Source: an uncultured Leptospirales bacterium
GTDB taxonomy: Bacteria; Spirochaetota; UBA4802; JAKQUI01
DNA: 64,000 nt
Direction of reading: 5' to 3'
Assembly (NCBI GenBank): GCA_964652955.1
Contig: CAZZCF010000001.1
Coordinates: 12,555 to 76,554, forward strand
Below, one piece after another: positions 7,060 to 38,011 of this stretch. A program made the translations under genes and the position numbers. The notes below the pieces were generated by a model. That model searched no databases, was not told where the DNA came from, and was given only the letters and a program-made list of their open reading frames with translations. The first letter of the stretch is position 1. Every line of letters begins with the position of its first letter.

Positions 7060-7061
7060 GT

Positions 7062-18742: not shown

Positions 18743-19654
18743 ATGGCAAAACGGTTAATTCGATCGGTCGTTACGGCGGAGAGAAATCCGGCAGTTGCTA
18801 TCCTTCTCTCACTGCTGAGCACGGGACTCGGGCAGATCTATAACGGCGAGCTGTCGAAGGGGATAGTATTTTTTGCGCTGCGTGTGTTAACGCTGCTCTT
18901 TATCCCCCTTTCCTTTGTTGTCGATTTTCGGAGCTCCTCCCTTGCCGTTTTTATCGCGCTGGTGCTCATACATATATTCCTGTGGATTGCGGCAGCGGGT
19001 GAAGCCTGTATCTCGTCGATGCGAAAAAAAAAATATATTCTCACGGTGTATAACTCTGTAGTGCTCTATTGTGTGTTCGGTTGTGCGAGCACGCTTATCC
19101 TTCTGTTTCTCTTCGTGCCGGTATCGCTCTTCTTCCGGATCGAGACGGTTCCCTCGAATTCGATGAATCCGACACTGTTCAGAGGGGAGTCGGTTGTGGT
19201 TAATACCTACGTGGTGCGAAGCGTGAAACCGGGAGAGGTTGTTTTCTACAGGCAGGGCGGGGTGGCGAAATTCGGAAGGGTAATCGCAACAGCGGGTGAT
19301 GCGGTTGTCGATAAAGGGGGAGTGTTCGAGATTAATGATGTTGACCTTTCCCTGGGCGTTTTTACCGATGATGAGCTTGATCGCATGGGTCTGGAGAATA
19401 GTGACGATATCTTTACCGAGAACAATGGGGAGCGCAGATATCCGATTCGGTATCTGCCATCGAGAGGACGATCGCGGAAGAATCGCGTTCGTATAGCAAT
19501 CGAAAAGGGGGCGGTTCTCGTTGCGCCTGATAACAGGAGAAGAGAGGACGTCTATGAGATAATTCCTGTTACGGCGGTCCGGGGGCGGGTTGAGGGAATA
19601 GTGATGAGCAGTCGGATCCGGAGAATCATGCTGTTGCCGTATATTCGTGAATGA
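18743..19654 (+). CDS. lepB: Signal peptidase I (S26) catalytic domain fused to an N-terminal TM2-like domain
   Basis: 'SNSMNPTL' catalytic Ser box and a 'GDAVVDKG' region, preceded by an 'AILLSLLSTGLGQIYNGELSKG' TM2-domain-like segment and further TM helices. Confidence 0.65.
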   Translation: MAKRLIRSVVTAERNPAVAILLSLLSTGLGQIYNGELSKGIVFFALRVLTLLFIPLSFVVDFRSSSLAVFIALVLIHIFLWIAAAGEACISSMRKKKYILTVYNSVVLYCVFGCASTLILLFLFVPVSLFFRIETVPSNSMNPTLFRGESVVVNTYVVRSVKPGEVVFYRQGGVAKFGRVIATAGDAVVDKGGVFEINDVDLSLGVFTDDELDRMGLENSDDIFTENNGERRYPIRYLPSRGRSRKNRVRIAIEKGAVLVAPDNRRREDVYEIIPVTAVRGRVEGIVMSSRIRRIMLLPYIRE

Positions 19655-19789
19655 AGCTTCATGGTCCGTTTTTATCGCCTCAATGCGCTATGAAAAAATT
19701 TATCAATAGAGTGTGTAAATGATTTATGGTGGCAGGTGCAGCGAGAAGCTGTCTTGAATGTGTCGGGAGATGAAAAGGGGAGGAAAGGC

Positions 19790-20758
19790 ATGTCACTCGT
19801 AATTGGGTGTAATAGCTTTGTTGGCCGTTCACTGGCAAAAAGACTTCTGCAAAAAGGGGCTCCGGTGAGGGGCATGGATTTCTGGCGTGATGAGCGTGCT
19901 CCCGAGAAGCTGGAATTCATTGAGGGTTCGGTTCTTGATTACGACCTGTTGCTCGAAGCGTGTGCCGGTGTTGATGTTGTGTATCATCTCATGGAGGTGC
20001 GACATCCATCGCGGTATGGCAGAAGATTCATGAAGAAGATAAATGTTACCGGTACTGAAAATGTTATCAGGGCAGCACTGGAAAAGCAGGTGCAAAAGAT
20101 TATTGTTCTCTCCACGGCCGATATATACGGGAAACCGAAGGCAATTCCGGTCAAGCATGACGATCCGAAGAAACCGGTGAGCGCCTATGGCCGAGACAAG
20201 CTCCGGGCAGAGAAGATATGCTGGCGATATATTGAAAAGCATGGCGCCGATATCACCATTTTCAGATCTACCTTTATTGCGGGAGCGGGGGTTGATGATC
20301 CGATGATTCTTATCATGTTGTATATGGCGCTGGCACTGGGTGATGCCAATCGGCTCTATGTCGCCGGTGACGGCGATTCTCTCCTTCAGATGATTCATCC
20401 CGATGATGTGGTTGATGCCTTCCTTGCCGCAGTAACGTCCCCCCGATCACGGGGGAAGGCCTATAATATCGGATCGGATAATGTGCCTACCCAGATTGAG
20501 CAGGTGGTCAAGCTGAAAGAGCTCGCCAAGCTCGATTGCTATATAAAGCACCTCAATCCCCGTTGTACCCGCTTCCTCTCCCTGATCCTCCGCCCTCTGA
20601 ATATTCCCTATCTCTCGAAAGAGCATATCTTGGGACTTCTTTCGAATATCGTTCTCGACTGCAGCAGGGCAAAGCGGGAGATCAACTGGTATCCCAGGAA
20701 AGACAATATCGATATTCTCGTTGAAACATGTGCGTGGTATGAACGGGAAAAGCTCTGA
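19790..20758 (+). CDS. NAD-dependent epimerase/dehydratase (extended SDR)
   Basis: 'MSLVIGCNSFVGRSLAKRL' Rossmann N-terminus and 'YGRDKLRAEK' YxxxK. ATG 19790 follows an AAAGGGGAGGA RBS; the track ORF starts 54 nt earlier. Confidence 0.8.
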   Translation: MSLVIGCNSFVGRSLAKRLLQKGAPVRGMDFWRDERAPEKLEFIEGSVLDYDLLLEACAGVDVVYHLMEVRHPSRYGRRFMKKINVTGTENVIRAALEKQVQKIIVLSTADIYGKPKAIPVKHDDPKKPVSAYGRDKLRAEKICWRYIEKHGADITIFRSTFIAGAGVDDPMILIMLYMALALGDANRLYVAGDGDSLLQMIHPDDVVDAFLAAVTSPRSRGKAYNIGSDNVPTQIEQVVKLKELAKLDCYIKHLNPRCTRFLSLILRPLNIPYLSKEHILGLLSNIVLDCSRAKREINWYPRKDNIDILVETCAWYEREKL

Positions 20759-20765
20759 GCGGGGT

Positions 20766-22409
20766 TCAGCGCGTAAAGAGATTTTTGAGCGCCTCCCACA
20801 GTTTCAGGAGCAGCACTCTCAGCAGTTGTCCGGGAGTTCCTTCTCCGGCATTCATGGTGAGCATGAGCTGTGCTCTTTTGATCTCCTCCGCGGTGAGCGG
20901 TCGTGAGCGCGATATTTCCTTACGTTTTTTCTTAACCTCTTTTCTCGCGAGCTTTAAAATTTCCTTCTCTTCATCGAGTCGTGCACGGGTAACCATATCA
21001 TAGAGGGTGGGCTCATGAAGCAATCTCTCGCGGATCTGTTGCAGCCGCTCGTGAGCATTCTGCAGGTGCGGATTTTTTCTGTTTTCGCTCAATTCGAGCA
21101 ACAGCTCGAGGTACTGGTTCAGGAAATAAGCCTGCTTGTACAATCGCTTCAATTCATCAATGGAGAGGCGTTCGAGATCGATTCTCTCAAACTCGTCAAC
21201 TGCAGTAATGATAAAATCCAGTGTTTCATCGGTCACCTTGAAGAGATCTTCCTGCTTGAGATCGCGAAGCTCAATGAATCGGTACGCGACTTCTTTGAGG
21301 TCATTCAACATCTGCTCGGAGATCTCCAGGAGGTATCGCAGACCGCGTTTCTCATGTGCGTTCAGGTGTGCCGATCCCCTTTCGGCATCGGAGAGCTTCT
21401 TGCGGATGTCATTGATGCTCAGCTGAGAAGGTTCAGCGGCGGCGTACTTTCGCTGCAGGGTGAATTCTTTATCGATAAAATTCGGTTCTGCGAGATCCTG
21501 ACCGATTTTCAGTATGTTCAATTTGATGTCACCGAGCAGCCTGAGGATTTTAAATCTGTCTATCTTGCTGATACCGTCGGTCACCACCAGTATCTCTGAA
21601 CGCATGATATCCTTATCGCGTTTGATATCCTCAATGGCCTGTTCAATCGCGAACTGAAGATTGGTGCTCCTCCCACCGGTGGTTGTTAAGAGGACTTTTT
21701 CAATCAACAGCGGGAAGTCCTCTTTTTCCCCCAATCGGTGGAGATCTCCGACATCCGAGTCGAAGGATCGAAAGAATATCATGGCATTGGTGTTCATCTT
21801 CCTCCTGAGGAATTCGGCGACGAGGCATTTGGAGAAAAAGGATCTCATTTTAAGATCCATGGAACGGGATCGATCCAGGAGGAGGTAAACCTTCTGCTCA
21901 AATCGATTCGCTGTTTTGCCGGTTTCGTCACGGCTTGTTGTTATCGGTTTATACTGATCGTATTCTGATTTATAGAATTTCTGAACCTGCAGTGTTTTCG
22001 TGAGGAGCTTGATGTCGAATATATCGTCCTCCTGAGCGAGCTCTCGCGGAAGGGACTTCTTCAAATCGTATATGGTTTTGAAAAAAGCAATTTCCATCGT
22101 ATCGCTGAGCGGGGAAGAGATCTCTTTTCTGTTTATCAGTATTGATTCATCCCGGTTCGGAGCTTTCATCCGCTCCTCCCGTGAGAGCTCCTCGATAGCG
22201 GTGAGTGCATCTGAGACGGTTTCCGGCGTGAATACGACCCGTGCGATTTCGAATATGGTCAGAAATTCTCTCGGGAGCATTGTCGCAAGATTATCGAAGA
22301 ATCCCAGAGCGTCCCAGTATTCAAAGAAATTGGTGCTCGGCTTATATGAGCGGGAGATGCTTTTGGAAGATGTTTGTATCACTTCATCTGCCTCACGCGG
22401 AAGATGCAT
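20766..22409 (-). CDS. von Willebrand factor type A (VWA) domain protein with long N- and C-terminal helical extensions
   Basis: MIDAS motif 'LLLDRSRSM' (DxSxS), followed by a '...TTGGRSTNLQFAIEQA...VVTDG' VWA core. About 175 aa N-terminal and 300 aa C-terminal of it (coiled-coil-like) are unassigned. Confidence 0.75.
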   Translation of the reverse strand: MHLPREADEVIQTSSKSISRSYKPSTNFFEYWDALGFFDNLATMLPREFLTIFEIARVVFTPETVSDALTAIEELSREERMKAPNRDESILINRKEISSPLSDTMEIAFFKTIYDLKKSLPRELAQEDDIFDIKLLTKTLQVQKFYKSEYDQYKPITTSRDETGKTANRFEQKVYLLLDRSRSMDLKMRSFFSKCLVAEFLRRKMNTNAMIFFRSFDSDVGDLHRLGEKEDFPLLIEKVLLTTTGGRSTNLQFAIEQAIEDIKRDKDIMRSEILVVTDGISKIDRFKILRLLGDIKLNILKIGQDLAEPNFIDKEFTLQRKYAAAEPSQLSINDIRKKLSDAERGSAHLNAHEKRGLRYLLEISEQMLNDLKEVAYRFIELRDLKQEDLFKVTDETLDFIITAVDEFERIDLERLSIDELKRLYKQAYFLNQYLELLLELSENRKNPHLQNAHERLQQIRERLLHEPTLYDMVTRARLDEEKEILKLARKEVKKKRKEISRSRPLTAEEIKRAQLMLTMNAGEGTPGQLLRVLLLKLWEALKNLFTR

Positions 22410-22491
22410 CCTGTCGATCGTGAAGGGTTTGCATCGAATGGTGTCTGCTCTTTATCCCTCTCACCGGGGGCATTGCCCCTGGCGTATGAAC

Positions 22492-23994
22492 TTACAGTAT
22501 GTTGCCATAGTCTTTCAGGATGCCTTCCTTGAGCTCTCGTACTTCTTCAACGGCCGGATGCAATTCTGTTATGCTGTTTTTCAGCGTTGCCAGTGTTATC
22601 TCCTCCTCCTCCACCTTCGATTTGCCGGGGAATATCTTCTTGAAGAGCTTCCGCAACCCCTGGAGGAGGCCGGTATCCTCTTTCAGCCGTTCCCTCTTTT
22701 CCGGATCTTCCCTCATCTCCTGAAGGAGCTTCCTGATATTGAGCAAAAACTCGATCTGATGAATTGCGCCCGTCGAGGTGAATTGTACCATGGTCTGTTC
22801 GTATGCATCCAGGAAGGCGTCTTTTTCGGATTTATCTCGTGCTTTCACCGAGATGTAGCTGTTCAGCGTGCAGAGCATCAGATACAAACTTTTTACATCA
22901 TCCATGGATACTTCATGCCGGTTGTCGAGAAGGGCGGCAGCTCTCAGAAAATCCGCCGACTTCGCCAGTTTTCTCGGGCTGATGAAGAAATTATATTCGC
23001 TCCGTCGCATTTCGGAAACGAATTTGTTGGTGATCACATTTTTCATAAAGAACACGGTGTCGGGAATGGTAACCTGAATATCCCTGTTGTTGTTTTTGAT
23101 GATTTCGGAGATGTGTATTATCTGGCTGAAGGGGATTTTCTTTTCCGGTTCGGTTGGCTTGCCGCGGCTGAACGCATAGGTATGATCGATAAGGAGCTGA
23201 GAGTACATATTCGAATCTTCCGGAATAATGGCCTTATAGATGAAACGGTCGAGCACCGCCTCGGTGACTTCATTGATTCTCATATAGTTGGCTGTTGCGA
23301 TGGTCGAATGTACCGCCGCATCGATGATCTCGGGACCATTGATGAACTTCCGCTCGTTGAGAACGGAGAGGAGCGATCGGAGCACAACATCACTGGCGTC
23401 GAAAAACTCATCCAGAAAAACAAGATCGGCCTCGATAATGGAGCCGTGAATATTATGGCGAATGATTCCCTTTTTGAACTCCTCAATGTTATAGGGGCCG
23501 AAATAGTTATCGGGGGTCTGGTCCTTGCTCGCCTGCGATGAGAAGACCCGAACATTATCGAAGGTGTTGAAGATATAATTGGCAAGGTATGATTTTGCCA
23601 TGCCGGTTCTGCTCAGGAGGAGGAGATGCTCCTGGGTGAGTATGGCATACATCGCCTGTTTGATAATCTCATCCCGGCCGATGACGTTCTGGGAGATCCG
23701 TTCCATATGCCATTTTAAATAGCTCGTAATCGAGGGGATATCGTAGTCAGCCTCTTTCTCGACAATCTCCACCGGAATATCCGGTACTTTCCCCGGTTTT
23801 TTTTCGACCCGGCTGGTGACAACAAACTGAGAGGGTGTCTCCGTATCGCGCTCAATCCTGTCGTCCTCGCGGCATATTCCCGGTTCCGCATCATCGGGTG
23901 TGTAAATATAGTACCCCTCTTCTTCGAACAGCGATTCGACTGAAGCGTATTTGATTAATTCTCGTTTTTCCGATTTTGATCGCATCGTATACAT
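22492..23994 (-). CDS. MoxR-like AAA+ ATPase (AAA_3/AAA_5 class) with degenerate P-loop and long terminal extensions
   Basis: 'GRDEIIKQAMYAILTQEHLLLLSRTGMAKS' (Walker A-like), 'DLVFLDEF' (Walker B), 'TIATANYM' (sensor 1) and 'AVLDRFIYK' (arginine finger) are arranged as in MoxR/RavA. ATG 23994 lies 13 nt after the kinase stop behind a GGAGA RBS. Confidence 0.75.
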   Translation of the reverse strand: MYTMRSKSEKRELIKYASVESLFEEEGYYIYTPDDAEPGICREDDRIERDTETPSQFVVTSRVEKKPGKVPDIPVEIVEKEADYDIPSITSYLKWHMERISQNVIGRDEIIKQAMYAILTQEHLLLLSRTGMAKSYLANYIFNTFDNVRVFSSQASKDQTPDNYFGPYNIEEFKKGIIRHNIHGSIIEADLVFLDEFFDASDVVLRSLLSVLNERKFINGPEIIDAAVHSTIATANYMRINEVTEAVLDRFIYKAIIPEDSNMYSQLLIDHTYAFSRGKPTEPEKKIPFSQIIHISEIIKNNNRDIQVTIPDTVFFMKNVITNKFVSEMRRSEYNFFISPRKLAKSADFLRAAALLDNRHEVSMDDVKSLYLMLCTLNSYISVKARDKSEKDAFLDAYEQTMVQFTSTGAIHQIEFLLNIRKLLQEMREDPEKRERLKEDTGLLQGLRKLFKKIFPGKSKVEEEEITLATLKNSITELHPAVEEVRELKEGILKDYGNIL

Positions 23995-24007
23995 CAATCT
24001 CCGGTTT

Positions 24008-25624
24008 TCATTCGTTAACGGCCGGTACGAGGATCTTTACCGAGGTGCCTTCCCCGGGAGAGCTCTTGATCCCGATAGTTCCCCCCATGTTTTCGATGAT
24101 GGAGTAGGTTACCATCAGTCCCAGTCCGGATGCCTTCTTCCCCTTGGTGGTAAAAAAGGGCTGGAAGATACTTTTAAGGTTCTCTTTCGGAATGCCGATT
24201 CCGTTATCTTCGACCAGTATGGAGGCGAAGGTGCTGCTGTTTACTGATACCGAATCAACGGAGAGCACGAGCTCGCCCTTGTCGGGCATGGCGTCCTCCG
24301 CGTTGGAAATGAGATGCAGCAGGACCTGTATCAATTGATTGCGTATGCCCCTGACGCGCGGGCTCTTCTCCGAGTAGGAGGTCGTCACCTTGTACCCGTT
24401 TTTCTGGAGCCTGTTCAGGGTTGCCTGGATGGGATGGGCGGTCAGGATCTTGTGCAGATCAAAGACTTCCTTGGCTTCCTCCTCGGGCTTCGAGAGGCTC
24501 AGCAGCTGATCGGGGATTTTCTTAATGCGCTCCAGCTCATTTTTGAGCGAATGTACATAATCAGCCACCGGGCTCTTGTCGTCGATGTTCTTTTCGATGA
24601 AGTTGAGATCCATTGTCATGAGATTGAGGGGAACTTTCAGCTCGAAGGCGACGCCGTTTGCGAGCAGCCCCATGGCGGAGAGCTTCTCCGACCGCTTCAT
24701 CTTGTTTGCGATTTTCATCTGTTCGGTAATGTCCTCGACCATGACCAGGATGCTCTTGACCTTCATGTTGGTGTCGAGGAGCGGATTCATTCGCACGTTA
24801 AGATTGAGTTTTCTGTCCCGGGAGGGCGGGACATATTCGATATTATCCTGTTGTACCGGTTTTTTCCTGAGAACGGCATCATCGAGGAGTTTTTGCATCC
24901 CTGACTCTTTAAAGCCGGGGTGTTCGGAGAGGTTGATGCCGATAGTGGTTTCTTTGGCCTCCTGCCCCATGAGCTGTCTGAAAGCCGGATTATCACTGAG
25001 GATAATCCCGGTTGGTTCCAGCGTGAATATGCCGATGGGAGCGCTCTCGATTATTTCATCGTTCAGGGTTTTCAGCCGCTTCATCTCTTCAGCCTGCAGG
25101 AACTGCTCCCGAATACGTTCTTCCAGCCTGATGGTGTTTTCTCGAAGCTTCTTCTCCATCAGGTGCATGTCGGTGATGTCTCTCAGGATGGCGATGAGGC
25201 CGATAACGCTGCCATCTTCAAATCGTATCGGTGAGAAGTTGGCAATAAAGTATGTGAGATTGCCGTCTCTATCATAGGTTTTCATCTTTTCGTTATGGAA
25301 TACCCGTCCTTCTTTGAGCACCAGCTCGAAGACAATCCGTGCTCGCTCCAGTTCGATTTCCGGGATGTATTCAGAATAGTGCATACCGACTGCTTCATCG
25401 CGTGAGAATTTCGACAGCTTTTCGCCGGCTTCGTTGACAAAGAGAAAGTTCCCGGAACTATCAAGTAAGAATATTACATCGGAAGCGGACTCTACCAGGT
25501 ATTTGTAGTAGAGTCCCAGGTCCATCATGAGCGATTGTTCTTCATTTTTTTTACGATATGCTATGAACTTCTCAATGATTTCTTCTTTGCTCAGTGATTC
25601 TAATTCTTTCGGATTAATTGCCAT
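24008..25624 (-). CDS. Cytoplasmic PAS-PAS sensor histidine kinase-like protein (HisKA-like + HATPase_c), phospho-acceptor position occupied by Phe
   Basis: It has no TM segment and two PAS-like regions. The HATPase_c N box 'LLHLISNAEDAM', G1 'DNGIGI' and G2 'GLGL' are present. The H-box region reads 'GVAFELKVPL', where the family consensus is G-x-A-H-E-x-x-x-P-L. Confidence 0.8.
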   Translation of the reverse strand: MAINPKELESLSKEEIIEKFIAYRKKNEEQSLMMDLGLYYKYLVESASDVIFLLDSSGNFLFVNEAGEKLSKFSRDEAVGMHYSEYIPEIELERARIVFELVLKEGRVFHNEKMKTYDRDGNLTYFIANFSPIRFEDGSVIGLIAILRDITDMHLMEKKLRENTIRLEERIREQFLQAEEMKRLKTLNDEIIESAPIGIFTLEPTGIILSDNPAFRQLMGQEAKETTIGINLSEHPGFKESGMQKLLDDAVLRKKPVQQDNIEYVPPSRDRKLNLNVRMNPLLDTNMKVKSILVMVEDITEQMKIANKMKRSEKLSAMGLLANGVAFELKVPLNLMTMDLNFIEKNIDDKSPVADYVHSLKNELERIKKIPDQLLSLSKPEEEAKEVFDLHKILTAHPIQATLNRLQKNGYKVTTSYSEKSPRVRGIRNQLIQVLLHLISNAEDAMPDKGELVLSVDSVSVNSSTFASILVEDNGIGIPKENLKSIFQPFFTTKGKKASGLGLMVTYSIIENMGGTIGIKSSPGEGTSVKILVPAVNE

Positions 25625-25713
25625 GGCATACCACTTCTCAGAGAAGAATGGGGTTTCCGATATCTACCATTAAAATATATCAAATCCCCTCCTAAAAACA
25701 ACTACAATTTTTT

Positions 25714-26151
25714 TTAGGATATGCGCACCGTGTTGAAAAACCATACTTCAACGATGAGGCTCACAAGAGTGCCGGCGAGGAATGATAGTGCGAAGAAGGT
25801 GTAATTCATTCTGAAAATAAAATATCCCCCCAGAGCAAAGATCGCCAGAATGACGACTCGCAGGATAAATCCCGCGAGGGTTACTGTGAGGAGAACCAGG
25901 ATGTTTGATCGCATTCCCCTGAGGGCGCCGAGCAACCACAGAAACGAGAGCGTCGCACTTGCTGTTGTTCCGGTAAGATATCCCAGAAAGGCTGCAATCC
26001 CGCGGTATTTGAGACAGAGGAGCGCGATGCCGAAATTCACGAGAGTGGCAATCGCGATCGGATAGAGAGCTTTTCTCGTACCTGTCATGGGACTCCCGGA
26101 GAGAATTGTGTTGATAAAACGACCGTACAGAAAAACCGGGTCCCGGGGCAC
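25714..26151 (-). CDS. Small integral membrane protein (about 4 TM), unknown function
   Basis: 145-aa hydrophobic ORF between adk and the kinase gene on the same strand. No motif recognised and the start is uncertain (an alternative Met lies at residue 22). Confidence 0.45.
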   Translation of the reverse strand: MPRDPVFLYGRFINTILSGSPMTGTRKALYPIAIATLVNFGIALLCLKYRGIAAFLGYLTGTTASATLSFLWLLGALRGMRSNILVLLTVTLAGFILRVVILAIFALGGYFIFRMNYTFFALSFLAGTLVSLIVEVWFFNTVRIS

Positions 26152-26187
26152 ACTTCGGATCCCCTTCCACGGAATGGCGGGGGCGGC

Positions 26188-26880
26188 TTACTTCAGCTGC
26201 GAGAGGAGCTCAGCGCTGACCTCTTCGACACCGGGTTTTCCGTCCAGCTCAATGATGCGGGGGCGGCCGTTGTTGTCCCGTGCAATCTGCTTGAAGTACT
26301 CAACTGATGCGAGCGTTCCCTCATCACGGTCGTAATAAATGGCGTGGCGTTTATCAATTGCCCCCTCGTCCTGATCATCGGCTCTTGCTGAAAGCGCGCC
26401 ACCGCAGACTCTGCAGACAAGCTCACCGTCTTTTTCTCGTGGCCTGATCGCCTCAATATAGATGTTATTGGGGTGATTGTTGTCGTTTTCGCACAATCGC
26501 CTTCCCATAATTCTCTTTTTCGCCGTTTCTCGATCCAGGACGATTTCGATGACATAATCGAGCGAGATATTCTCCCGATCAAGAGCTTCATTCAGAGCTT
26601 GTGCCTGTGCCCCGTTTCTGGGAAAACCGTCGAGGAGCCAGCCCTCTCTGCAATCGTCCTCTTTCAATCTGCTCAGTATCATCGGGATGGTTATGTCGTC
26701 GGGAACGAGGTCGCCTCTATCGATGAACTCCTTCGCCTTTTTCCCGAGCGCTGTTCCCTTTGTGATGTTTTCCCTGAATATCACACCCGATTCGATATGG
26801 GGAATCTGGTATTTTTTCTGTACGATGGCCCCCTGCGTTCCCTTGCCGCTTCCGTTTGGCCCGAAGATCAGTATATTCAT
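26188..26880 (-). CDS. adk: Adenylate kinase with Cys-rich (zinc) LID
   Basis: 'MNILIFGPNGSGKGTQG' P-loop, 'GFPRNGAQAQAL', and a LID carrying the Cys pair 'CRVCGG'. Confidence 0.95.
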   Translation of the reverse strand: MNILIFGPNGSGKGTQGAIVQKKYQIPHIESGVIFRENITKGTALGKKAKEFIDRGDLVPDDITIPMILSRLKEDDCREGWLLDGFPRNGAQAQALNEALDRENISLDYVIEIVLDRETAKKRIMGRRLCENDNNHPNNIYIEAIRPREKDGELVCRVCGGALSARADDQDEGAIDKRHAIYYDRDEGTLASVEYFKQIARDNNGRPRIIELDGKPGVEEVSAELLSQLK

Positions 26881-27235
26881 CCATACACCTCGCTTTCACT
26901 GCAAAGTTCGCTGCTGATTACGTGTTGAGTCAGGAGACGATGAGCACCCGCGTTCATTATAGAACGAGATTACGATAGGGGCGAAAATTGTAAAGAAAGT
27001 TTTGCAACAATGCGTCAATCCGGGCGATGAGTTTTCTGCCATCTCCGTTTCATCATGGTGCGGGTAATAGGGTATGGCCCCTCCGGGGGTGATAATGATC
27101 ATTTGTATTGTGCTTGACCTCCTAGTATTTTCCATTATCGATAGTATCGTCTGCCATATAGTGCGGGATAGCTGACAGGAGGAGGTTGACGTGATCGTGC
27201 AGAACAGGCCACAGAAATAACGCAGGGAGGATGAC

Positions 27236-27691
27236 ATGGAATTTATACCGGTTGAAAAGCTCAAAGAGATGATTGGCCAGGAGATGGGAGTGAGCGACTG
27301 GGTTCAGATTGATCAGGGGAAAATAAATCAGTTCGCCGAATGTACCGGTGATCATCAGTGGATACACGTTGATGTCGAGAAGGCAAAGCAGGGCCCCTTT
27401 GGCGGACCCATTGCACACGGTTTTCTCACCCTCTCACTGATACCGGTTTTGAGCGGCTCGAGCAAATACATGCCGGAGGGAATCAAGATGGCCATTAACT
27501 ACGGGCTCAATAAGGTCAGGTTCATCAACCCCGTACCGGCCGGCTCGCGGGTTCGGAGCAGAATGGTCCTGGCGGATATTGAAGAACGCTCCGGCGGAAG
27601 AATAATGATGACCACCACTCATAATATCGAGATTGAGGGGCAGGATAAACCGGCATGTATTGCTGAATCGCTGGCGCTCTTCTATGTGTAG
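27236..27691 (+). CDS. MaoC-like (R)-specific enoyl-CoA hydratase / hot-dog dehydratase
   Basis: 'NQFAECTGDHQWIHVDVEKAKQGPFGGPIAHGF' is the MaoC dehydratase signature. Confidence 0.85.
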   Translation: MEFIPVEKLKEMIGQEMGVSDWVQIDQGKINQFAECTGDHQWIHVDVEKAKQGPFGGPIAHGFLTLSLIPVLSGSSKYMPEGIKMAINYGLNKVRFINPVPAGSRVRSRMVLADIEERSGGRIMMTTTHNIEIEGQDKPACIAESLALFYV

Positions 27692-27965
27692 AGGGTTTCT
27701 CTTGTTTCCTGGAAAAGCTTAAAAGTCCAGACCGGATTACGGGATGATAAGGAAATTTTTTCAATCCTGATAATCTGAACAGAGTGTTTAAATGTTTAAT
27801 TCAGTTGAAACGATGATGAGGCTCGCAAAAGATAAGGAGAAAGGGAATAAGAATAACCACAACATGAAATCCTGTTATCCCGTCTAATTTTTTTCCTTTC
27901 CATAATGTGAGTGTCTCAGGATCGTAGATGATGTGATCAGAGGGTTTATTTACAAGGAGGAAACC

Positions 27966-29633
27966 ATGGAGGAGAAGCCCTGGCATCGCCATTATGATTA
28001 CTGTGTCCCCACCACGATTCGCTATCCGAGAATTCCTGCGCATGAAATACTTCAGATTCCGGTGAGCGGCTTTCCGGACAAAACAGCGCTGTACTTTTAC
28101 GGCACGGAGATGACATTCTGGGAGCTCCGGCAGCGTGTTCTGATCATGGCAACCGCCCTTCAGTCGCTGGGCGTGCGGAAGGGGGATCGGGTCGGCGTGC
28201 ATCTTCCCAACTGCCCGCAGTTCGTCATAGCGTATTACGCGGTCATGTCGCTCGGTGCGATTGTGGTCAACCTCAACCCCATGTATACCGCCGAGGAGCT
28301 CAAGGCCGTTGCGGCGAATACCGGCATGACCGCGCTGTTTACCTTCGATATGTTCATTGAGAACGTCCGGAAGATGCTCGAGGCGGTTGAGATTCCCCGG
28401 GTGATCGTCACACGGGTAACCGATTTTATCGACGGGATTCCCCGGAGCACGCCGGAGGATCTCGGCTTGGAGGAGGGGTGGCATCACTTCTCGCTGCTCA
28501 TGGATGCCGTTACGAGCGTGAAGCGCCCCCGCGTTGATATAGTCCCGGATGATCCGGCGCTCATACAGTTCACCGGCGGAACAACCGGCATTCCCAAGGG
28601 GGCGGTGTTGACCCACGGGAATCTCGTTGCGGCGACGCTGCAGTGCGCGCTCTGGGGGTCGGCGACAATCGGGTATATCGCGCCGGAGCGGCGGAACGTG
28701 CTCTCGGTGCTTCCCTATTTTCACGTCTACGGTGCCATTGTCGCCCTGAGCTGGGGTATGTTCAGCTGCGCAACACAGATAGTGGTTCCCCGCTTTGAGA
28801 TCGATGAGCTCATGGGTATCATCGCGAATTTCAATGAGATTACCTTCTTCCCGGCCGTTCCCACCATGATAAACGCGGTTATCAATCACCCGAAGGCGGA
28901 TGAGCTGAACCTCGCCAGGCGGCTCGGGCTCCTGAACAGCGGAGGCGGTCCCATGCCGGTAGAGCTCATTGAGAAGGCCCGGGATATGAACATCAACTAC
29001 AGCGAGGGGTGGGGCATGAGCGAGACCACCTCCCTCGGCATCGCGAACCCCGTTCTCGGCCTCAAGAAGAGCGGTGGGATAGGTATCCCCTTCCCCGATA
29101 CCGATATTCGCATTGTCGATGTTGAAAAGGGCGTGGAGGAGGTCCCCCGGGGGGAACCGGGCGAGATTGTTATCAGGAGCCCGCTGGTCATGAAGGAGTA
29201 CTGGAACAATCCCGAGGAAACGGCGGGGCAGCTCAGGGATGGATGGCTCTCTACCGGTGATATCGCCTATTTTGATGATGATGACTATGTTTTTATCGTC
29301 GATCGGAAGAAGGATATGATAATTGCCGGCGGTTACAATATATACCCGCGGGAGATCGACGAGGTGCTCTACGAGCATCCCAAGATTGCCGATGCCGTTG
29401 CCGTGGGAATTCCCGATGAGTATCGCGGCGAAACAGTCAAGGCGTACATCGTGCCCCGAGAAGGGGAGACCCTCACCGAAAAGGAGGTCATCGATTTCTG
29501 CAAGGAGAAGCTCGCGCCCTACAAGCAGCCGAAGGTTGTCGAGTTCCGAAAAGAGCTTCCGAAATCGGCCGTGGGAAAGATCCTTCGAAAGATACTCCGC
29601 GACGAGGAGATGGGGAAGGGGAAGGGGAAGTAG
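27966..29633 (+). CDS. Long-chain acyl-CoA synthetase / AMP-dependent synthetase-ligase
   Basis: AMP-binding 'TGGTTGIPKGAVLTHGNL' and a 'GEIVIRSPLVMKEYWNNPEETA' region. Start is ATG 27966 after a GGAGGAAACC RBS. Confidence 0.9.
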   Translation: MEEKPWHRHYDYCVPTTIRYPRIPAHEILQIPVSGFPDKTALYFYGTEMTFWELRQRVLIMATALQSLGVRKGDRVGVHLPNCPQFVIAYYAVMSLGAIVVNLNPMYTAEELKAVAANTGMTALFTFDMFIENVRKMLEAVEIPRVIVTRVTDFIDGIPRSTPEDLGLEEGWHHFSLLMDAVTSVKRPRVDIVPDDPALIQFTGGTTGIPKGAVLTHGNLVAATLQCALWGSATIGYIAPERRNVLSVLPYFHVYGAIVALSWGMFSCATQIVVPRFEIDELMGIIANFNEITFFPAVPTMINAVINHPKADELNLARRLGLLNSGGGPMPVELIEKARDMNINYSEGWGMSETTSLGIANPVLGLKKSGGIGIPFPDTDIRIVDVEKGVEEVPRGEPGEIVIRSPLVMKEYWNNPEETAGQLRDGWLSTGDIAYFDDDDYVFIVDRKKDMIIAGGYNIYPREIDEVLYEHPKIADAVAVGIPDEYRGETVKAYIVPREGETLTEKEVIDFCKEKLAPYKQPKVVEFRKELPKSAVGKILRKILRDEEMGKGKGK

Positions 29634-33017: not shown

Positions 33018-33760
33018 ATACGGATACCTCTCAATTTGCCGAAGTTCTCGAAAGGTACGGTTTTGCCGAACCGATCCCGCCTGAAGTGCAAAAGCATATC
33101 CGAAACATCAAGAGCGAGCAGTTTATACGGACCCTGAGGAAAGCCGGTAAATACAGTTTTATCTTCGGAATTGTTACTTCTGTTTTCTTTGCCATAAAGA
33201 AAATGGGCGTGGGCACAACTATTGTGAAGAGTGCTCTTCTGGTCTTCGCGTCGGCTGTCATATCTCTTACGATACTATCATCAGGCATTTACCTCTCCTT
33301 CAAATTTATTACAGCTCCCGAGGAAAGGATTGAGGAAAAAAGAGAAGATGTGGTGCAATCGGGTGACGGTGGGATCGATAAACGGATAATCCATGAGAAA
33401 AAGGCACGGAGAGAGATTCCGGAGGGAGTGATGCAGTTGGGCGTGCAACCCTTTGTTGCTGTTAATGTGAAGGGGAGGATTGCGCTCCTGGCTGCCGATA
33501 CCATCGCGAAGAAGCTTGTCGAGCTGAGCGGGAGCTCCCGGGTGATAAATATGAGGAGGGGGAGAGAGGGGGGAAGGATAGGTCTTATGCTTTTGGGATC
33601 GGTTGAGGATTTGGAGGGAACCTATACCATCACTGCAAAAGTAGTCGGTGTCAGAGATTCGAAGATCGTATTCTATACGTCGGAGACCGTTCGTTCGATT
33701 GATGAGATTCCCGCAGCCTGCACGAGGATTGCAGAGCGGATTTCGAAAATCATCAGATAG
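33014..33760 (+). CDS. Putative membrane-anchored anti-sigma factor / regulator
   Basis: Its start overlaps the sigma gene stop by 4 nt; a short cytoplasmic N-terminus is followed by two TM helices and a periplasmic domain. Assignment is by position. Confidence 0.45.
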   Translation: MNTDTSQFAEVLERYGFAEPIPPEVQKHIRNIKSEQFIRTLRKAGKYSFIFGIVTSVFFAIKKMGVGTTIVKSALLVFASAVISLTILSSGIYLSFKFITAPEERIEEKREDVVQSGDGGIDKRIIHEKKARREIPEGVMQLGVQPFVAVNVKGRIALLAADTIAKKLVELSGSSRVINMRRGREGGRIGLMLLGSVEDLEGTYTITAKVVGVRDSKIVFYTSETVRSIDEIPAACTRIAERISKIIR

Positions 33761-33782
33761 AAAAAGCACAACAGGGGTTCTT

Positions 33783-34790
33783 GTGAAGACAGCACACGGG
33801 AGGTTGCTCTGGCGCAGCGCGGTGCTCCTCTTTTCCATATTGCTAAGCACCTCTGCCCGGTCCGATACCGGATCGGTTGCGAAGAGAGTTGCCGTGCTCA
33901 ATTTTACGGCCAACAACACGTCTGAAGGAATTTCCCGTATTGTCCGCAATCAGGTTGAGATTAATCTGTTCAAGACGCAGTATTTTGATATTCTCGAGAG
34001 AAATCAGATAGATCTCCTCCTGAAGGAGCGGGAAAAGCAGGCTGCCGAGTGTAATGATGAGAATTGCGCCGTTAAGATAGGGAAGATTCTCTCCGCTCAT
34101 TTTGTCATCATCGGGAGCGTGGATAAGCTCGAAAGTTTCGTTATTACCATCAAGGTGGTAAGCGTAAAGGAGCGATCGGTGATACTGGTCGACTCTCAGG
34201 AGGTTGATTCACTCGGAAATATCAGAGGTACGACAACGGTCATTACCAGACGGGTTGCGGACAAGCTGCGGGTAAATATGAGCGGTGAGAAGAAGAGCTT
34301 TTTCCCTCCGCTTGCCTTTTCGCTTCGCCTGAGTTATCTGTGGCCCACGGGCTATCTTAAGGATCTCGCTTATCCGGGGTACGGCGTTTCGATGCGGGGA
34401 GGCTTTGAAGATATTTTCCTGAAGGATGTACAGATCGGGATTGATCTCGGCTATTTCAGTTTCCGGGGAAGAGATGCAGTGGATCGAGCGACGATGATAC
34501 CGGTTGTGCTCATTGTCGGGTATCGTTTTGCCGCAGGGAGGTTTTTTGCGATTCCGGAGTTTTCGTCGGGGGTCAGTTATAACACCATCAGTTACGATGC
34601 CGGGAACCGAAAATCCGGTGAGCGGAAGGAGAGCAGAATGCAGCCGCTCGTCAGGGGAGGCCTTGTGCTGGGGGGCTTTCTGGGAGGCTCGCTCAGCGGC
34701 GTTATCGGCGCTGAATACGGAAGCATCTTCGAAAGAGAGGGGAGGATATCCTTTGTTTCCATCATCACCGGCGTTTCGGCGTCATTTTGA
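33783..34790 (+). CDS. Outer-membrane lipoprotein with CsgG/LpoB-like N-domain and C-terminal beta-barrel-like region
   Basis: 'VAVLNFTANNTSEGISRIVRNQVEINLFKTQYFDILERNQID...AVKIGKILSAHFVIIGSVDKL' fits the CsgG-family fold pattern. The C-terminus has alternating aromatic/Gly strands. GTG 33783 follows an ACAGGGG RBS after the upstream stop. Confidence 0.5.
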   Translation: MKTAHGRLLWRSAVLLFSILLSTSARSDTGSVAKRVAVLNFTANNTSEGISRIVRNQVEINLFKTQYFDILERNQIDLLLKEREKQAAECNDENCAVKIGKILSAHFVIIGSVDKLESFVITIKVVSVKERSVILVDSQEVDSLGNIRGTTTVITRRVADKLRVNMSGEKKSFFPPLAFSLRLSYLWPTGYLKDLAYPGYGVSMRGGFEDIFLKDVQIGIDLGYFSFRGRDAVDRATMIPVVLIVGYRFAAGRFFAIPEFSSGVSYNTISYDAGNRKSGERKESRMQPLVRGGLVLGGFLGGSLSGVIGAEYGSIFEREGRISFVSIITGVSASF

Positions 34791-35022
34791 GACCTCTGTC
34801 ATCATCAACCTTCGGGAATAAGCTCTCCCCGCGGGCACAGGGTCAGGTCATGGGTTCGATCACCGAAGATGAGCTCAACGAGCGATTGTCAGTTCTCTGA
34901 TTCTTTTGTTAAGGATCGGGGCGCAGTGGCGGATGACGAACAACGATAACGCTCTGTTTGTATGCAATTCGCCGGCCGGGCGCGCTACAGAAAGAAAAAG
35001 TCGTTTATGACAGGAGGTGCAC

Positions 35023-36843
35023 ATGAAAGGGATGTTTCAGTTTTCCATCGTTGCCGTATCACTCTCTCTCATATCCTGTAATAGCCTCTTTTATGATATT
35101 TCTTCACCCTCCAGCGAATATATAAAGCCGGAAGTGGCGTATGTGTATCCCGAGCCGGGTTTAGTTGATGTGCCGACAAACACATCGATACTCGTATCCT
35201 TCAACAAGGAGATTGATATCGCGTCAATCGATAGCGAGGCCTTGCATGTTGTCGATGAGTTTGGCAATGTATTGCGGGGGGAGATTGCCTTTCACGAGAA
35301 CAGCATCGCCATATTCGAGCCCGAAGAGCCGATGATTCCGCATACGGCATACACGGCAATGCTGAAAAAAGATGTCCGGGATATGGAGGGGGGAGCGCTT
35401 GACGCTGATTATTCATGGAGCTTTATAACCGGCTCGGAGGAGGACATGGCTTCACCGGAGATTGTTTCGACCCTCCCGGAGCATAATGCGGCATGCCCCA
35501 CCGAGAGCGTCTCGATAGTGGCCACTTTCAACGAGGACATCAATCCTCTGTCGATAACGCCGGAAACCTTTCGTGTTGAGGACGGAGAGGATATCGTCGC
35601 GGGAGCGATAAGCTATGATGCCGGCAGGAGATCGATCATATTCGTCCCCTACGGGCGGTTGAATGACAATTCCCGTTACCGGGTTGCCGTTATGAACATA
35701 AGGGATCTCGCGAAAAATCCCCTGAGCGCGGAATTCGTCTGGAATTTCAGAACCGGCGCGATTCGAATAGAGCTCGAGGATGCCAGGAACTGCGAGAACG
35801 GCTTCGCCACCTTCGGGCATCCGCCGCGAAGGCTGTTCAAGGATGATGGATTCCCGCTCTCGGAGGGGACCGATTTTACCTACGATTTGTCAATCGCCTC
35901 TCTCTTCGACCGAGGGATAAATGGAGCCTTCGAGCCCGGAAAATACTTCCGGATTGTCGAGAACGGGAAAAATATTGTGGATAGTAACGGCCTTGCGCTG
36001 GTTCCGGTGGCCAGGATGATCCTCTTCAGCGATATTAATCGGATTGCTCCGAAGCCGTATCAGTGCTATATCGATCCGATGAGCGGATATTTTATACTGC
36101 CTCGTCCCGATTACTGGAGCAGGCTGGAGAGCCTGGATGATATTGTCGAGGCGGAAATTTATGACACCGTGCCGAGTTACAGCGGGAATCAGTTGTCCTG
36201 TACGACCGGCAAGTTCGGAAAGTGTATTTATCAGTATGAAACCTCACCAGAGCATATCGATACTAATATTTTCTACATGTACCCTTTCGGTGATGCTGAA
36301 AAAACTTCATCTCGGGGAACGGCATCTTTCTGGTTGCGTTGTAATCCTCCTTCGGGGAAATATTACATATACAGCCATTTTGTTTTCGGGAATAACAATG
36401 TACACTTTACCTGTGATTACTGGGGCCAGAAAATTATTAAAATAAATGTTAACGGAGTTGTAGTTGCGAGTAAAAATTTAAATTGGACGGGATGGACACA
36501 TGTTTATGTCGTATGGGCGGAGGATCGAAGCCTCTCGGATAACAAGACTGTACGGGTATTTATCAACGGTCAGGAATATGTTTCAACAACCGCGATAATA
36601 GATACGGAGGGTGCTACATATTATAAAGGATTAATGACCTTTGTCCTTAATGAACAATACGGATACAATTACTGGGACAACATCAAAATCTGGAAGCACG
36701 TCGTCTCCGAGGATCCCTCCTGGGAGTACAACAGCGGCGCCGGAAGGGAGGATGCCCTTCACGAAATGTACGGTCCCGACAACGGCTACAGGCCCCTCCT
36801 CACCGGTCCCGGAAACGGGGTGGGGTACTACTACGTGCCGTGA
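35023..36843 (+). CDS. Large surface lipoprotein with two SbsA/Big-like Ig domains and a C-terminal LamG/ConA-like domain
   Basis: Lipobox 'LISCNS'; two repeats of 'Y(V/I)xP..G..DVPTNTSI.V.F...I' type; the C-terminal part is beta-rich and resembles the lectin/LamG fold. ATG 35023 follows AGGAGG. Confidence 0.6.
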   Translation: MKGMFQFSIVAVSLSLISCNSLFYDISSPSSEYIKPEVAYVYPEPGLVDVPTNTSILVSFNKEIDIASIDSEALHVVDEFGNVLRGEIAFHENSIAIFEPEEPMIPHTAYTAMLKKDVRDMEGGALDADYSWSFITGSEEDMASPEIVSTLPEHNAACPTESVSIVATFNEDINPLSITPETFRVEDGEDIVAGAISYDAGRRSIIFVPYGRLNDNSRYRVAVMNIRDLAKNPLSAEFVWNFRTGAIRIELEDARNCENGFATFGHPPRRLFKDDGFPLSEGTDFTYDLSIASLFDRGINGAFEPGKYFRIVENGKNIVDSNGLALVPVARMILFSDINRIAPKPYQCYIDPMSGYFILPRPDYWSRLESLDDIVEAEIYDTVPSYSGNQLSCTTGKFGKCIYQYETSPEHIDTNIFYMYPFGDAEKTSSRGTASFWLRCNPPSGKYYIYSHFVFGNNNVHFTCDYWGQKIIKINVNGVVVASKNLNWTGWTHVYVVWAEDRSLSDNKTVRVFINGQEYVSTTAIIDTEGATYYKGLMTFVLNEQYGYNYWDNIKIWKHVVSEDPSWEYNSGAGREDALHEMYGPDNGYRPLLTGPGNGVGYYYVP

Positions 36844-36994
36844 GGATGTAGCTAGTTGTTAATTGACCGATTGCCAATATTTTAGAAAAGACCATAGCAT
36901 TTCAATAAATATTGTTAGTGTAATTTCAAATCGAATCGAAGTGATGTAATTAATTTATTTTGCATAGGAATTCAATAAAGCAGAAGAGGGTGGA

Positions 36995-37759
36995 ATGAGA
37001 AGATTTTATATTATACTTATACCCATACTGTTGTTTATGGTTAGTAATTTGTTAATAGTTATTCCTGATAATTGCAGGACCCTTGATGATTTGATCAGTC
37101 AATTGAATTTTTTCAGTTATGTATTAAAGATATTGTTTGTTTTGTTAGCAATTGCTATTTTTCTAATATACAATTTAACAGCTGTAATGGGAACTTTGAA
37201 TAAATTTATTCAATTTGATACGATTAGACCGGATATAATTGGCAAGTTGGTTGAAGAATCTTTAAACATTTTTAAGGAATTGGGTATTGAATTTAGAGTT
37301 AATGTAATGCTGGTTAAATTTAAAATCATTGTATGGAAACGATTTATAAAATTTCTTCGGCCATTTATTTTTCAAAAACAATTCAAAACCGTTTATCATT
37401 ACAATATGGAGCATGATCGAGATAAGGATTTAGGGCTTATAACAAAGCAGGGTGTTGCAGGTTTGGCTTATAATGATCCCGAGGGGAAACATAGAATCGT
37501 TGATTTTATGAATGTTGATAGGAAATTTTTTAAATTAGATAAAGATCAACTTGATAGAACAAAGAGTATTAAATTTGTAATTAGCACTCCAATTCTTAAA
37601 TGGAATCATGAAACTGGTAAATTAACTGATAAGGTTATCGGAGTGGTCAACATTGATAGTAGAAATAATTCATTTAAGATTATACAGGAAAAAGTTGTAA
37701 TTGAGGATTTAGTTCAGTACAGTTACAATATAGCTGATTATGTCGCAAAGTTATATTAA
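36995..37759 (+). CDS. AT-rich islet gene: N-terminal 2-TM segment plus GAF-like domain protein
   Basis: Local GC is roughly 30% against about 57% for its neighbours. Two TM helices are followed by 'GLITKQGVAGLAYNDPEGKHRIVDF...SIKFVISTPIL...KVIGVVNIDS', which matches the GAF ligand-binding core pattern. Confidence 0.5.
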   Translation: MRRFYIILIPILLFMVSNLLIVIPDNCRTLDDLISQLNFFSYVLKILFVLLAIAIFLIYNLTAVMGTLNKFIQFDTIRPDIIGKLVEESLNIFKELGIEFRVNVMLVKFKIIVWKRFIKFLRPFIFQKQFKTVYHYNMEHDRDKDLGLITKQGVAGLAYNDPEGKHRIVDFMNVDRKFFKLDKDQLDRTKSIKFVISTPILKWNHETGKLTDKVIGVVNIDSRNNSFKIIQEKVVIEDLVQYSYNIADYVAKLY

Positions 37760-37804
37760 TTTGATTTCTTTTATGAGAATTGTATATTCAATACAGAGGC
37801 TAAA

Positions 37805-38011
37805 ATGAATAGCAAAAAGAAAAAAGACGACAATAAAACAATGCTTGTAGAAATAGAAGGTATGCCTGGAGTGTATACCTCAACTGGCAGTTGTCATTCA
37901 ACCGATATTGATTATTCTACATTGGTAGATAGAATATTAAAGCCGTTAGAAAAAACAAGAAAAATAAAAGGTCCAATTCCCAAATGGCCTATAAAAGGTG
38001 TGGAAGAATGA
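37805..38011 (+). CDS. Small hypothetical protein (68 aa) in the AT-rich islet
   Basis: Open frame with Lys-rich N-terminus; no recognisable motif. Coding status uncertain. Confidence 0.3.
   Translation: MNSKKKKDDNKTMLVEIEGMPGVYTSTGSCHSTDIDYSTLVDRILKPLEKTRKIKGPIPKWPIKGVEE

Follow-up and report, generated by a model that had tools for sequence, protein, structure and literature searches.

The window analysed here, a stretch of 64,000 nucleotides (nt) from an uncultured Leptospirales bacterium (assembly GCA_964652955.1, contig CAZZCF010000001.1), carries on its minus strand three closely packed genes that encode, in the order in which they are read, a pseudo-histidine kinase, an AAA+ ATPase of the MoxR type and a VWA protein. 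They are preceded on the same strand by a gene for a small membrane protein with four hydrophobic segments (four-transmembrane, 4-TM) and by the adenylate kinase gene adk (Table 1). Domains were called on the open reading frames (ORFs) of the window with Pfam, and further family scans were made with NCBIfam, PADLOC and Rfam. A preliminary description, made from the letters of the DNA, had read the three co-directional genes as a single unit possibly reaching adk and the 4-TM gene, in which a cytoplasmic PAS kinase-like protein, devoid of its histidine, is coupled to a MoxR-VWA core. This picture has been borne out: the ORFs and their 13- and 82-nt gaps are as described, the domain calls agree, the synteny found in relatives extends upstream to both adk and the 4-TM gene, and histidine is absent from the acceptor position of the kinase homologue. 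The same description recognised no known system with such a layout, and this also stands, as PADLOC gave no significant match and the VWA partner belongs to no curated Pfam or NCBIfam family.

Table 1. Genes and subdivisions of the locus, in window coordinates; numbers in the last column are residues unless otherwise stated.
Feature	Position	Strand	Length	Remarks
Pseudo-histidine kinase gene	24008..25624	minus	538 aa	PAS-PAS-DHp-GHKL
Domains of the pseudo-kinase				short N-terminal helix; PAS1 ~39-155; PAS2 ~186-305; degenerate DHp ~306-385; intact GHKL/CA ~386-538
Phospho-acceptor codon in the H-box	24644..24646	minus		Phe327 replaces His; translation GVAFELKVPL
MoxR AAA+ ATPase gene	22492..23994	minus	500 aa	length counted from ATG
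Regions of the ATPase				N-terminal extension 1-~85 (nt 23740-23994); AAA+ core and lid ~86-382; helical C-terminal region 383-500
VWA protein gene	20766..22409	minus	547 aa	
Regions of the VWA protein				aromatic-rich N-terminal region ~28-78; CoxE/ViaA-like pre-VWA segment with LPRELA motif ~96-172; VWA 173-~305 (nt 21495-21893); helical C-terminal region of ~240 aa
Small 4-TM membrane-protein gene	25714..26088	minus	124 aa	from ATG 26088
adk (adenylate kinase)	26188..26880	minus		Pfam ADK 1.9e-41; upstream neighbour, same strand as the three genes

Domain architecture of the three proteins

The kinase homologue is built like a PAS-containing sensor kinase. Pfam PAS matches it at 2e-24 over two stretches and HATPase_c at 5e-22 (78.8 bits), HisKA is touched at a sub-threshold E of 2.7e-4, and the NCBIfam matches (AtoS, NifL and others) all lie far under their cut-offs. 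With a canonical HisKA sensor kinase it shares the boxes of the CA/GHKL domain, but it differs in the acceptor histidine and in having no locus-linked response regulator. At the acceptor position, the 78 homologues aligned have Ser (38), Tyr (27), Leu (6), Glu (4) or, once each, Phe (in the window), Arg and Thr, and none has His; nor was an alternative conserved His found in the DHp region of the family. Because the acceptor is missing from the whole family, the protein, judged from its sequence, cannot act as a histidine kinase. The other half of the catalytic apparatus has had a different fate. Residues N441, D473, G475, G477, P489, F490, K494 and G500-L501-G502 are invariant in all 78 homologues and F487 is retained in 76, so that the ATP-binding boxes N, G1, F and G2 of the GHKL domain are conserved across the family. 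A nucleotide pocket that is kept while the histidine is lost family-wide points to selection on the pocket and not on phosphotransfer. Two loci searched for it (L001 and L003) have no Response_reg gene in their conserved neighbourhood, which leaves room for orphan regulators elsewhere in the genome; one locus (L004) has an unrelated response regulator-GGDEF gene 5 kb away, which is not conserved elsewhere.

Can such a protein still be an active kinase? It might autophosphorylate on a residue other than His, as would be DivL-like, or phosphorylate the ATPase or the VWA protein on Ser, Thr or Tyr, in which case control would be exerted by phosphorylation rather than by binding. Ser kinases built on a GHKL domain exist (SpoIIAB/RsbW and BCKDK). 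The conserved ATP-binding boxes would suit an active enzyme, as would the catalytic-base Glu beside the His position, retained in 72 of the 78 homologues. In addition, the His position itself holds Ser, Tyr or Thr in 66 of 78, a residue that could be a retained phospho-acceptor, and DivL is a known pseudokinase with Tyr in place of His (PMC4211667). However, Phe in the window and Leu, Glu or Arg elsewhere indicate that there is no selection for a hydroxyl group at this site, the H-box Pro survives in only 40 of 78 sequences, and NifL, which acts on its partner by stoichiometric binding, likewise keeps its nucleotide pocket purely for the sensing of ADP/ATP (PMC12998190). Phosphorylation by this protein is the chief rival reading, but a rather unlikely one.

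The ATPase is matched best in Pfam by bpMoxR (PF20030; 110.7 bits, 6.7e-32, against a cut-off of 27), and AAA_5 (53.5 bits) and AAA_lid_8 (28.7 bits) also pass their cut-offs. Residues K134, S135, D195, E196, N236, R250 and R341 are invariant in the alignment of the family (A1), and we assign them to Walker A, Walker B, sensor 1, the Arg finger and sensor 2. By these features the protein is a member of the MoxR-type AAA+ clade with its catalytic motifs intact. Its P-loop, LSRTGMAKSY, has the G-x-A-K-S form common to RavA (GIAKS), and E. coli RavA is its closest solved relative, as found by profile search against the PDB (E 1.4e-20), by hhalign (residues 103-382 against RavA 21-284, probability 98.9%, 28% identity, ~255 aligned columns) and by Foldseek, in which the top matches of the ATPase model are RavA. 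The RavA equivalog of NCBIfam, NF010054, is matched over residues 103-381, at 81.5 bits against a cut-off of 681. Past residue ~382 neither the profile search against the PDB nor hhalign found any similarity to RavA, which has a C-terminal triple-helical plus LARA domain, and the LARA domain was undetected; in a weak model (pLDDT 57) the tail is predicted to be helical, with no beta-rich LARA-like part.

Both ends of the ATPase have features peculiar to this subfamily. The tail has the pattern P-x-VEE-x-x-ELK-x-G-x-x-x-D, in which V482, E483, E484, E487, L488, K489, G491 and D495 are invariant in A1 and P480 nearly so. The N-terminal extension contains a conserved IESxLExDGY-type motif and, after it, a variable linker of low confidence. 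The extensions announced in the preliminary description are therefore present but smaller than it gave: since residue 103 aligns with RavA residue 21, the N-terminal one measures ~85 and not ~120 aa, and the tail after the lid (383-500) ~118 and not ~200 aa.

In the VWA protein, the MIDAS residues D179-x-S181-x-S183, T244 and D278 are invariant across 20 sequences. On the window protein Pfam VWA_2 is marginal (E 0.047), and it matches 12 of the 20 family members at E<=1, the best at 7e-5; Foldseek, run on a low-confidence model, returned VWA and integrin I domains as top matches. The VWA call is sound because these three lines of evidence, the VWA_2 matches in 12 of 20 members, the invariant MIDAS and the VWA fold of the model, coincide. 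A profile search found no relative of the family in the PDB. When the family profile was compared with 1.8 billion representative sequences by HMMER, 508 matches were obtained at E<=1e-3, falling into three tiers: about 20 core representatives, proteins of ~500 aa with an identical layout (E 1e-57 to 1e-20), and proteins in which a C-terminal VWA domain and the pre-VWA segment align (E ~1e-15) to profile positions ~90-295. Sampled members of the second and third tiers carry VWA_2 and VWA_CoxE, the distant relatives passing or approaching VWA_CoxE, and weakly resemble E. coli ViaA in a co-linear manner, an LPxE motif included. Directly, hhalign of the family (alignment A2) against E. coli ViaA was insignificant (probability 0.7%), and VWA_CoxE (PF05762) has no match in the window protein and only weak ones in 2 of 20 family members (best 0.0029). 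A homology search with an alignment of the distant relatives returned only its own first sequence. At a remote level, then, the protein appears to belong to those VWA proteins associated with MoxR that form a CoxE/ViaA-like branch.

The sizes of its own extensions were likewise revised: the N-terminal one, including the pre-VWA segment, covers ~172 aa against the ~175 described before, and the C-terminal one ~240 and not ~300 aa. The latter is predicted to be all-helical, again in a low-confidence model, and neither it nor the aromatic-rich N-terminus matches any known family. The suspicion that the extensions might be housekeeping domains, for example of a CoxD/CoxE-type maturation factor, is met halfway, as the VWA and pre-VWA portion is remotely CoxE/ViaA-like, but no cox genes lie nearby and the other extensions match nothing known. 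Structure prediction, which had been proposed for the four unassigned segments, was carried out by AF2 from alignments of 20 sequences for the VWA protein and 12 for the ATPase, and yielded poor models (pLDDT 54 and 57) in which Foldseek recognised only the VWA fold and a RavA-like AAA+ module. We also considered whether the C-terminus of the VWA protein forms an amphipathic helix that targets it to the membrane, and dropped the idea, as a hydrophobic-moment ranking gave it no support.

Gene spacing, conservation and distribution

The TGA of the pseudo-kinase gene and the ATG of the ATPase gene (23994) are separated by 13 nt containing GGAG, and an in-frame TTG is present at 23997. The ATPase gene ends with TAA at 22492-22494, 82 nt before the ATG of the VWA gene at 22409; some public gene calls have the VWA protein start 9 codons later, giving 538 aa (P0121). 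At its end (20766) the VWA gene converges with a plus-strand epimerase gene ending at 20758. A hydropathy scan detected no hydrophobic segment of transmembrane strength in any of the three proteins. The GC content of the locus is unremarkable, a scan of 19500-27800 with Rfam gave no RNA family, and scans of the locus for promoter and terminator consensus sequences stayed at chance level and were uninformative.

Some features of the spacing belong to the window rather than to the family. The 82-nt gap (22410-22491) contains a short GC hairpin, GGGGC-AAT-GCCCC, with no T-run after it; as the corresponding junction is much shorter or overlapping in related loci, the hairpin is a non-conserved element. 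The gap between the 4-TM and pseudo-kinase genes (25625-25713) is AT-rich and 89 nt long, against a projected median of ~14 nt in relatives, and an internal promoter inside it is possible. A long antisense ORF (22072-23541, plus strand) overlaps the ATPase gene.

About 280 homologues of the ATPase are detectable, nearly all in uncultured Spirochaetota and with full-length identities of 58-90%; taken over homologues as a whole, identity to the window ATPase is 53-90%. In a scan using one genome per species, 97 genomes have a relative of the ATPase; the best 80 of these 97 are all metagenome-assembled genomes of Spirochaetota, labelled Leptospirales, Leptospiraceae or Spirochaetia. Synteny was examined by tblastn of the window proteins against 84 loci. 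All of the loci with a long enough contig (~80 at species level) have the pseudo-kinase, ATPase and VWA genes in the same order on a single strand, and the few apparent absences are all at contig ends. The gene arrangement is therefore not due to chance, as it recurs in all related loci with enough flank. The 4-TM gene was detected upstream of the pseudo-kinase gene in 75 loci, and adk lies upstream in most of the long-form loci, with a change of strand in only three. The projected gaps between genes have medians that stay within about 20 nt. Genes for epimerase, signal peptidase and an MBL-fold protein follow downstream and lie on the other strand. More widely, the conserved neighbours comprise homoserine dehydrogenase, a PLP-dependent enzyme, MBL-fold hydrolase, signal peptidase and epimerases on one side, and MaoC dehydratase, acyl-CoA synthetase and Dus on the other.

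The best argument for regarding the three genes as a functional unit is provided by a sub-lineage (L004/L039, L046 and L068) in which they stay together although adk and the 4-TM gene were undetected nearby; the pseudo-kinase has a single PAS domain there and is ~360 aa long, and the neighbours in L004 differ from those at other loci. Module genes and flanking genes vary together in their identity to the window proteins (Spearman rho 0.46-0.79), which fits vertical co-descent of module and flanks. As far as seen, the comparisons indicate that the module is a vertically inherited unit of the core genome in one clade of uncultured Spirochaetota. Whether adk is to be counted as a member of the unit is uncertain.

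It might be argued that the three genes are mere neighbours, the pseudo-kinase being an ordinary or orphan signalling protein that happens to lie beside a generic MoxR-VWA pair. A sister lineage does have the pair without the pseudo-kinase, and the promoter and terminator scans lend no help either way. However, order and tight spacing are kept in all loci with enough flank, including those without detected adk and 4-TM genes, and the identity of the pseudo-kinase covaries with those of the ATPase (rho 0.79) and the VWA protein (rho 0.77). Added to the family-wide loss of the histidine and to an N-terminal extension on the ATPase only alongside the pseudo-kinase, this makes a fortuitous neighbourhood the least probable of the explanations considered here.

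The preliminary description had made conservation of the trio its touchstone, and the outcome is divided: the trio is conserved in the ~80 species-level loci, but ATPase and VWA genes occur without the kinase gene in two lineages (L093 and L100/L101). In these the order is adk-4-TM-MoxR-VWA, adk having been detected in both L093 and L100, with nothing corresponding to the pseudo-kinase gene between the 4-TM and ATPase genes; identities to the window are 31% for the 4-TM protein, 51-55% for the ATPase and 34% for the VWA protein. Since these sisters have an adk-adjacent unit of 4-TM, MoxR and VWA genes that lacks the pseudo-kinase, the latter looks like an added regulator, acquired by accretion and not universal. 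Their ATPase aligns only from window residue 93 onward; the N-terminus before this is short, unrelated and devoid of the IESxLExDGY motif. A more distant ATPase (L095), with 33% identity to the window protein over residues 84-494 including the conserved helical tail, likewise has no such extension. The N-terminal extension was thus found only where the pseudo-kinase is present, which suggests that it is a docking element for the latter. The L095 locus itself (2587-8211), in which a bpMoxR ATPase gene (447 aa) is followed by an overlapping VWA gene (565 aa) and then by a gene for an 817-aa protein without a Pfam match, looks like a further uncharacterised three-gene variant. In L093 the ATPase gene (5496-6799) is called in two pieces (372 and 62 aa) on a long-read metagenome contig, probably owing to an assembly frameshift.

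Two further observations concern the rest of the window. At 36001-38000 the GC content drops to 0.364, compared with ~0.51 for the window; this region, just downstream of a CsgG-like gene (33648-34790), covers the 3′ part of a gene for a Big_5/Laminin_G-like surface protein (35017-36843, plus strand) and an ORF of 254 aa (36995-37759, plus strand) without a Pfam match. It may be a surface-protein locus that was gained by horizontal transfer or that evolves fast. Elsewhere, ORFs overlap on opposite strands at 27801-29378 (minus) and 27933-29633 (plus). Because only the plus-strand ORF has family support, as an AMP-binding acyl-CoA synthetase, the 525-aa minus-strand ORF is probably spurious.

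Known systems and a possible mechanism

To which known system does the module belong? The most obvious comparison is RavA-ViaA, in which the AAA+ module has its closest solved relative and in which, as here, an ATPase gene is followed by a VWA gene in a two-gene operon. At a remote level the window VWA protein also shares a co-linear LPxEL pre-VWA motif and the MIDAS with ViaA-like proteins. However, its VWA domain is central (173-305 of 547) and followed by a long helical C-terminus, whereas that of ViaA is C-terminal and preceded by a helical N-terminal domain, and RavA has neither an N-terminal extension nor a pseudo-kinase partner. The CoxD-CoxE pair follows the same logic of a MoxR ATPase and a VWA protein with MIDAS, but the ATPase here is RavA/bpMoxR-like rather than CoxD-like, and cox or other metalloenzyme genes are absent nearby.

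A third comparison is with the bpMoxR ternary systems (PF20030; Kaur et al., 2020), and it bears on the claim in the preliminary description that the locus may be a conflict module. The module would then be an NTP-dependent conflict system, acting against phages or by abortive infection, akin to the MoxR-vWA-beta-propeller ternary systems and with the pseudo-kinase as a third, sensory component. The ATPase does pass the bpMoxR threshold, the ternary systems resemble it in their helical vWA extensions, in having a third conserved component and in lacking a conventional effector (PMC7159879), and the related L095 pair is accompanied by the large 817-aa third gene. On the other hand, the features that define these systems, a vWA protein with a fused beta-propeller and a third protein with a variable N-terminus, TPR and a beta-propeller (PMC7159879), are both absent: no propeller family was found in 20 members of the VWA family, and no TPR or propeller protein in the conserved neighbourhood. 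Histidine-kinase domains are unreported among the vWA-associated effectors of the conflict systems surveyed by Kaur et al. (2020; PMC7159879). The only PADLOC match was a chance-level one to Cmr4 (E 0.034), no effector or defence genes lie in the neighbourhood, the proteins are highly conserved with no hypervariable regions beyond the linkers, and the locus is single-copy, set in housekeeping synteny conserved over ~80 species and co-diverging with its flanks. The claim has accordingly been abandoned; a role in conflict is very unlikely.

The closest functional parallel may be sought outside the MoxR proteins. NifL is a PAS-PAS-DH-GHKL histidine-kinase homologue without phosphorylation activity, whose GHKL and DH domains bind the AAA+ domain of NifA; ADP stabilises the complex, and oligomerisation is prevented (PMC12998190). 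The pseudo-kinase described here has the same PAS-PAS-DH-GHKL architecture, likewise without phosphotransfer, and here too the gene directly precedes that of an AAA+ ATPase; the NifL model TIGR02938 aligns over its residues 40-531, although at 94.9 bits against a cut-off of 242.45. There are clear differences as well. The partner is a MoxR chaperone-type ATPase, whereas NifA belongs to the sigma54 enhancer-binding proteins; a GlnK-type partner is not apparent; and the NifL family retains a conserved but unused His (PMC12998190) that the present family has lost. In this last respect DivL is nearer, being a multi-PAS kinase homologue in which the acceptor His is replaced by Tyr (as in 27 of the 78 homologues here) and which works in protein-protein signalling (PMC4211667). 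However, the input of DivL is a phosphorylated response regulator and its target the kinase CckA, whereas the pseudo-kinase is linked to an AAA+ ATPase and to neither a response regulator nor a partner kinase. The module is thus outside RavA-ViaA, the bpMoxR ternary systems, CoxD-CoxE, NifL-NifA and the canonical two-component systems, each of which has a defining feature that it does not share.

By analogy with these systems we propose, with a probability of about one half, that the locus encodes a MoxR-VWA chaperone pair gated by direct contact with a NifL-like nucleotide and PAS sensor. The outline would be as follows. The RavA-like ATPase, which is of the hexameric type, and the VWA adaptor with its MIDAS would form an ATP-driven chaperone that remodels or assembles a dedicated client, as the characterised MoxR-VWA pairs (reviewed in PMC7159879) suggest. 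The pseudo-kinase would act on it as NifL does on NifA: as a dimeric sensor it would combine a signal received by the PAS domains with the ATP/ADP state read by the GHKL domain, and would gate the ATPase by stoichiometric protein-protein contact, plausibly docking on the N-terminal extension. The tight gene spacing would favour stoichiometric co-expression. We infer that the pair is a chaperone, that it is regulated by direct binding and that nucleotides are sensed, and likewise where the sensor docks and what kind of client is served.

What could the client be? RavA-ViaA act on respiratory membrane complexes (Nuo, Frd) and at the inner membrane (PMC9489729, PMC3893208, PMC10585395). For the present module, too, the client would probably be an energy-related complex associated with the membrane, because a weakly AtpI/Cg1360-like membrane protein is co-conserved and adk is syntenic. 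The membrane protein in question, encoded by the 4-TM gene, has the invariant residues G36, G40, W51, F99, F103, E114 and W116, with Glu114 lying in an EVWF motif within the last hydrophobic segment; its maximal KD19 hydropathy is 2.71, and its four-segment topology was read by eye from the alignment. Sixteen of 18 members match NCBIfam NF053722, the 'Cg1360 family ATP-synthase-associated protein', nearly over their full length, with scores of 12-30 bits that are all under the 40-bit cut-off (best E 2.4e-7), and Pfam ATP-synt_I (PF03899) touches 2 of 18. In hhalign, comparisons of the 4-TM family with an AtpI-like protein (L086) and with a PF04020 protein (L090) were both negative, and no atp genes were found among the scanned neighbours of the module. 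The 4-TM protein is a probable membrane partner of the module, and an energy-transducing membrane client may be taken as a lead, not a finding.

The distant VWA relatives offer one case in point. In Ca. Alcyoniella of the phylum Lernaellota, a relative of the VWA protein is encoded directly after atpZ-atpI-atpB-atpE and is followed by a tandem VWA paralogue. In Ca. Alcyoniella australis (L086 8001-9533 and L087 311-3501) these tandem paralogues are of the VWA_CoxE type, with 510 and 513 aa, and no MoxR gene lies beside them within the sequence covered. A consistent linkage to ATP synthase among the distant relatives was looked for and rejected, as this is one case only (L086/L087) and the other contexts differ.

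A more specific extension would make the module an energy-state-gated machine: the pseudo-kinase would sense ATP/ADP together with a PAS signal and switch a MoxR-VWA pair that is anchored by the AtpI/Cg1360-like protein and that assembles or remodels the membrane sector of F-type ATP synthase or another bioenergetic membrane complex. We regard this as speculative and, on balance, improbable. If true, it would be the first histidine-kinase-derived sensor over a non-transcriptional AAA+ machine, and a MoxR system for which regulator and client are both defined.

Several points weigh against the contact-gated chaperone that we prefer and against the client assigned to it. Besides the hydroxyl residues at the former His position discussed above, which could be a retained phospho-acceptor and not part of a pure scaffold, the association between the pseudo-kinase and the N-terminal extension amounts to essentially one evolutionary event of gain or loss. 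The AF2 models of the ATPase and the VWA protein are, as stated, poor. The AtpI/Cg1360 likeness is weak, lying below the cut-off in a class of hydrophobic proteins that yield biased matches. Finally, the contexts of the distant VWA relatives vary, comprising the atp operon, flagellin genes, a gene for a small PF04020 membrane protein, an MCP gene and a NuoF-like gene, and no single client theme is found among them.

We found no earlier description of a MoxR-VWA pair combined with an input from a NifL- or DivL-like pseudo-kinase. The locus comes off the list of candidate defence systems, and its four-protein module is tractable for heterologous reconstitution. For most of the widespread MoxR-VWA pairs, client and regulatory input are both unknown, and the module described here is a natural case of such a pair gaining a dedicated sensor alongside a new N-terminal extension of its ATPase. 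If the NifL-like gating is true, the principle of a kinase turned stoichiometric anti-activator would reach beyond the sigma54 activators to AAA+ machines of the chaperone type.

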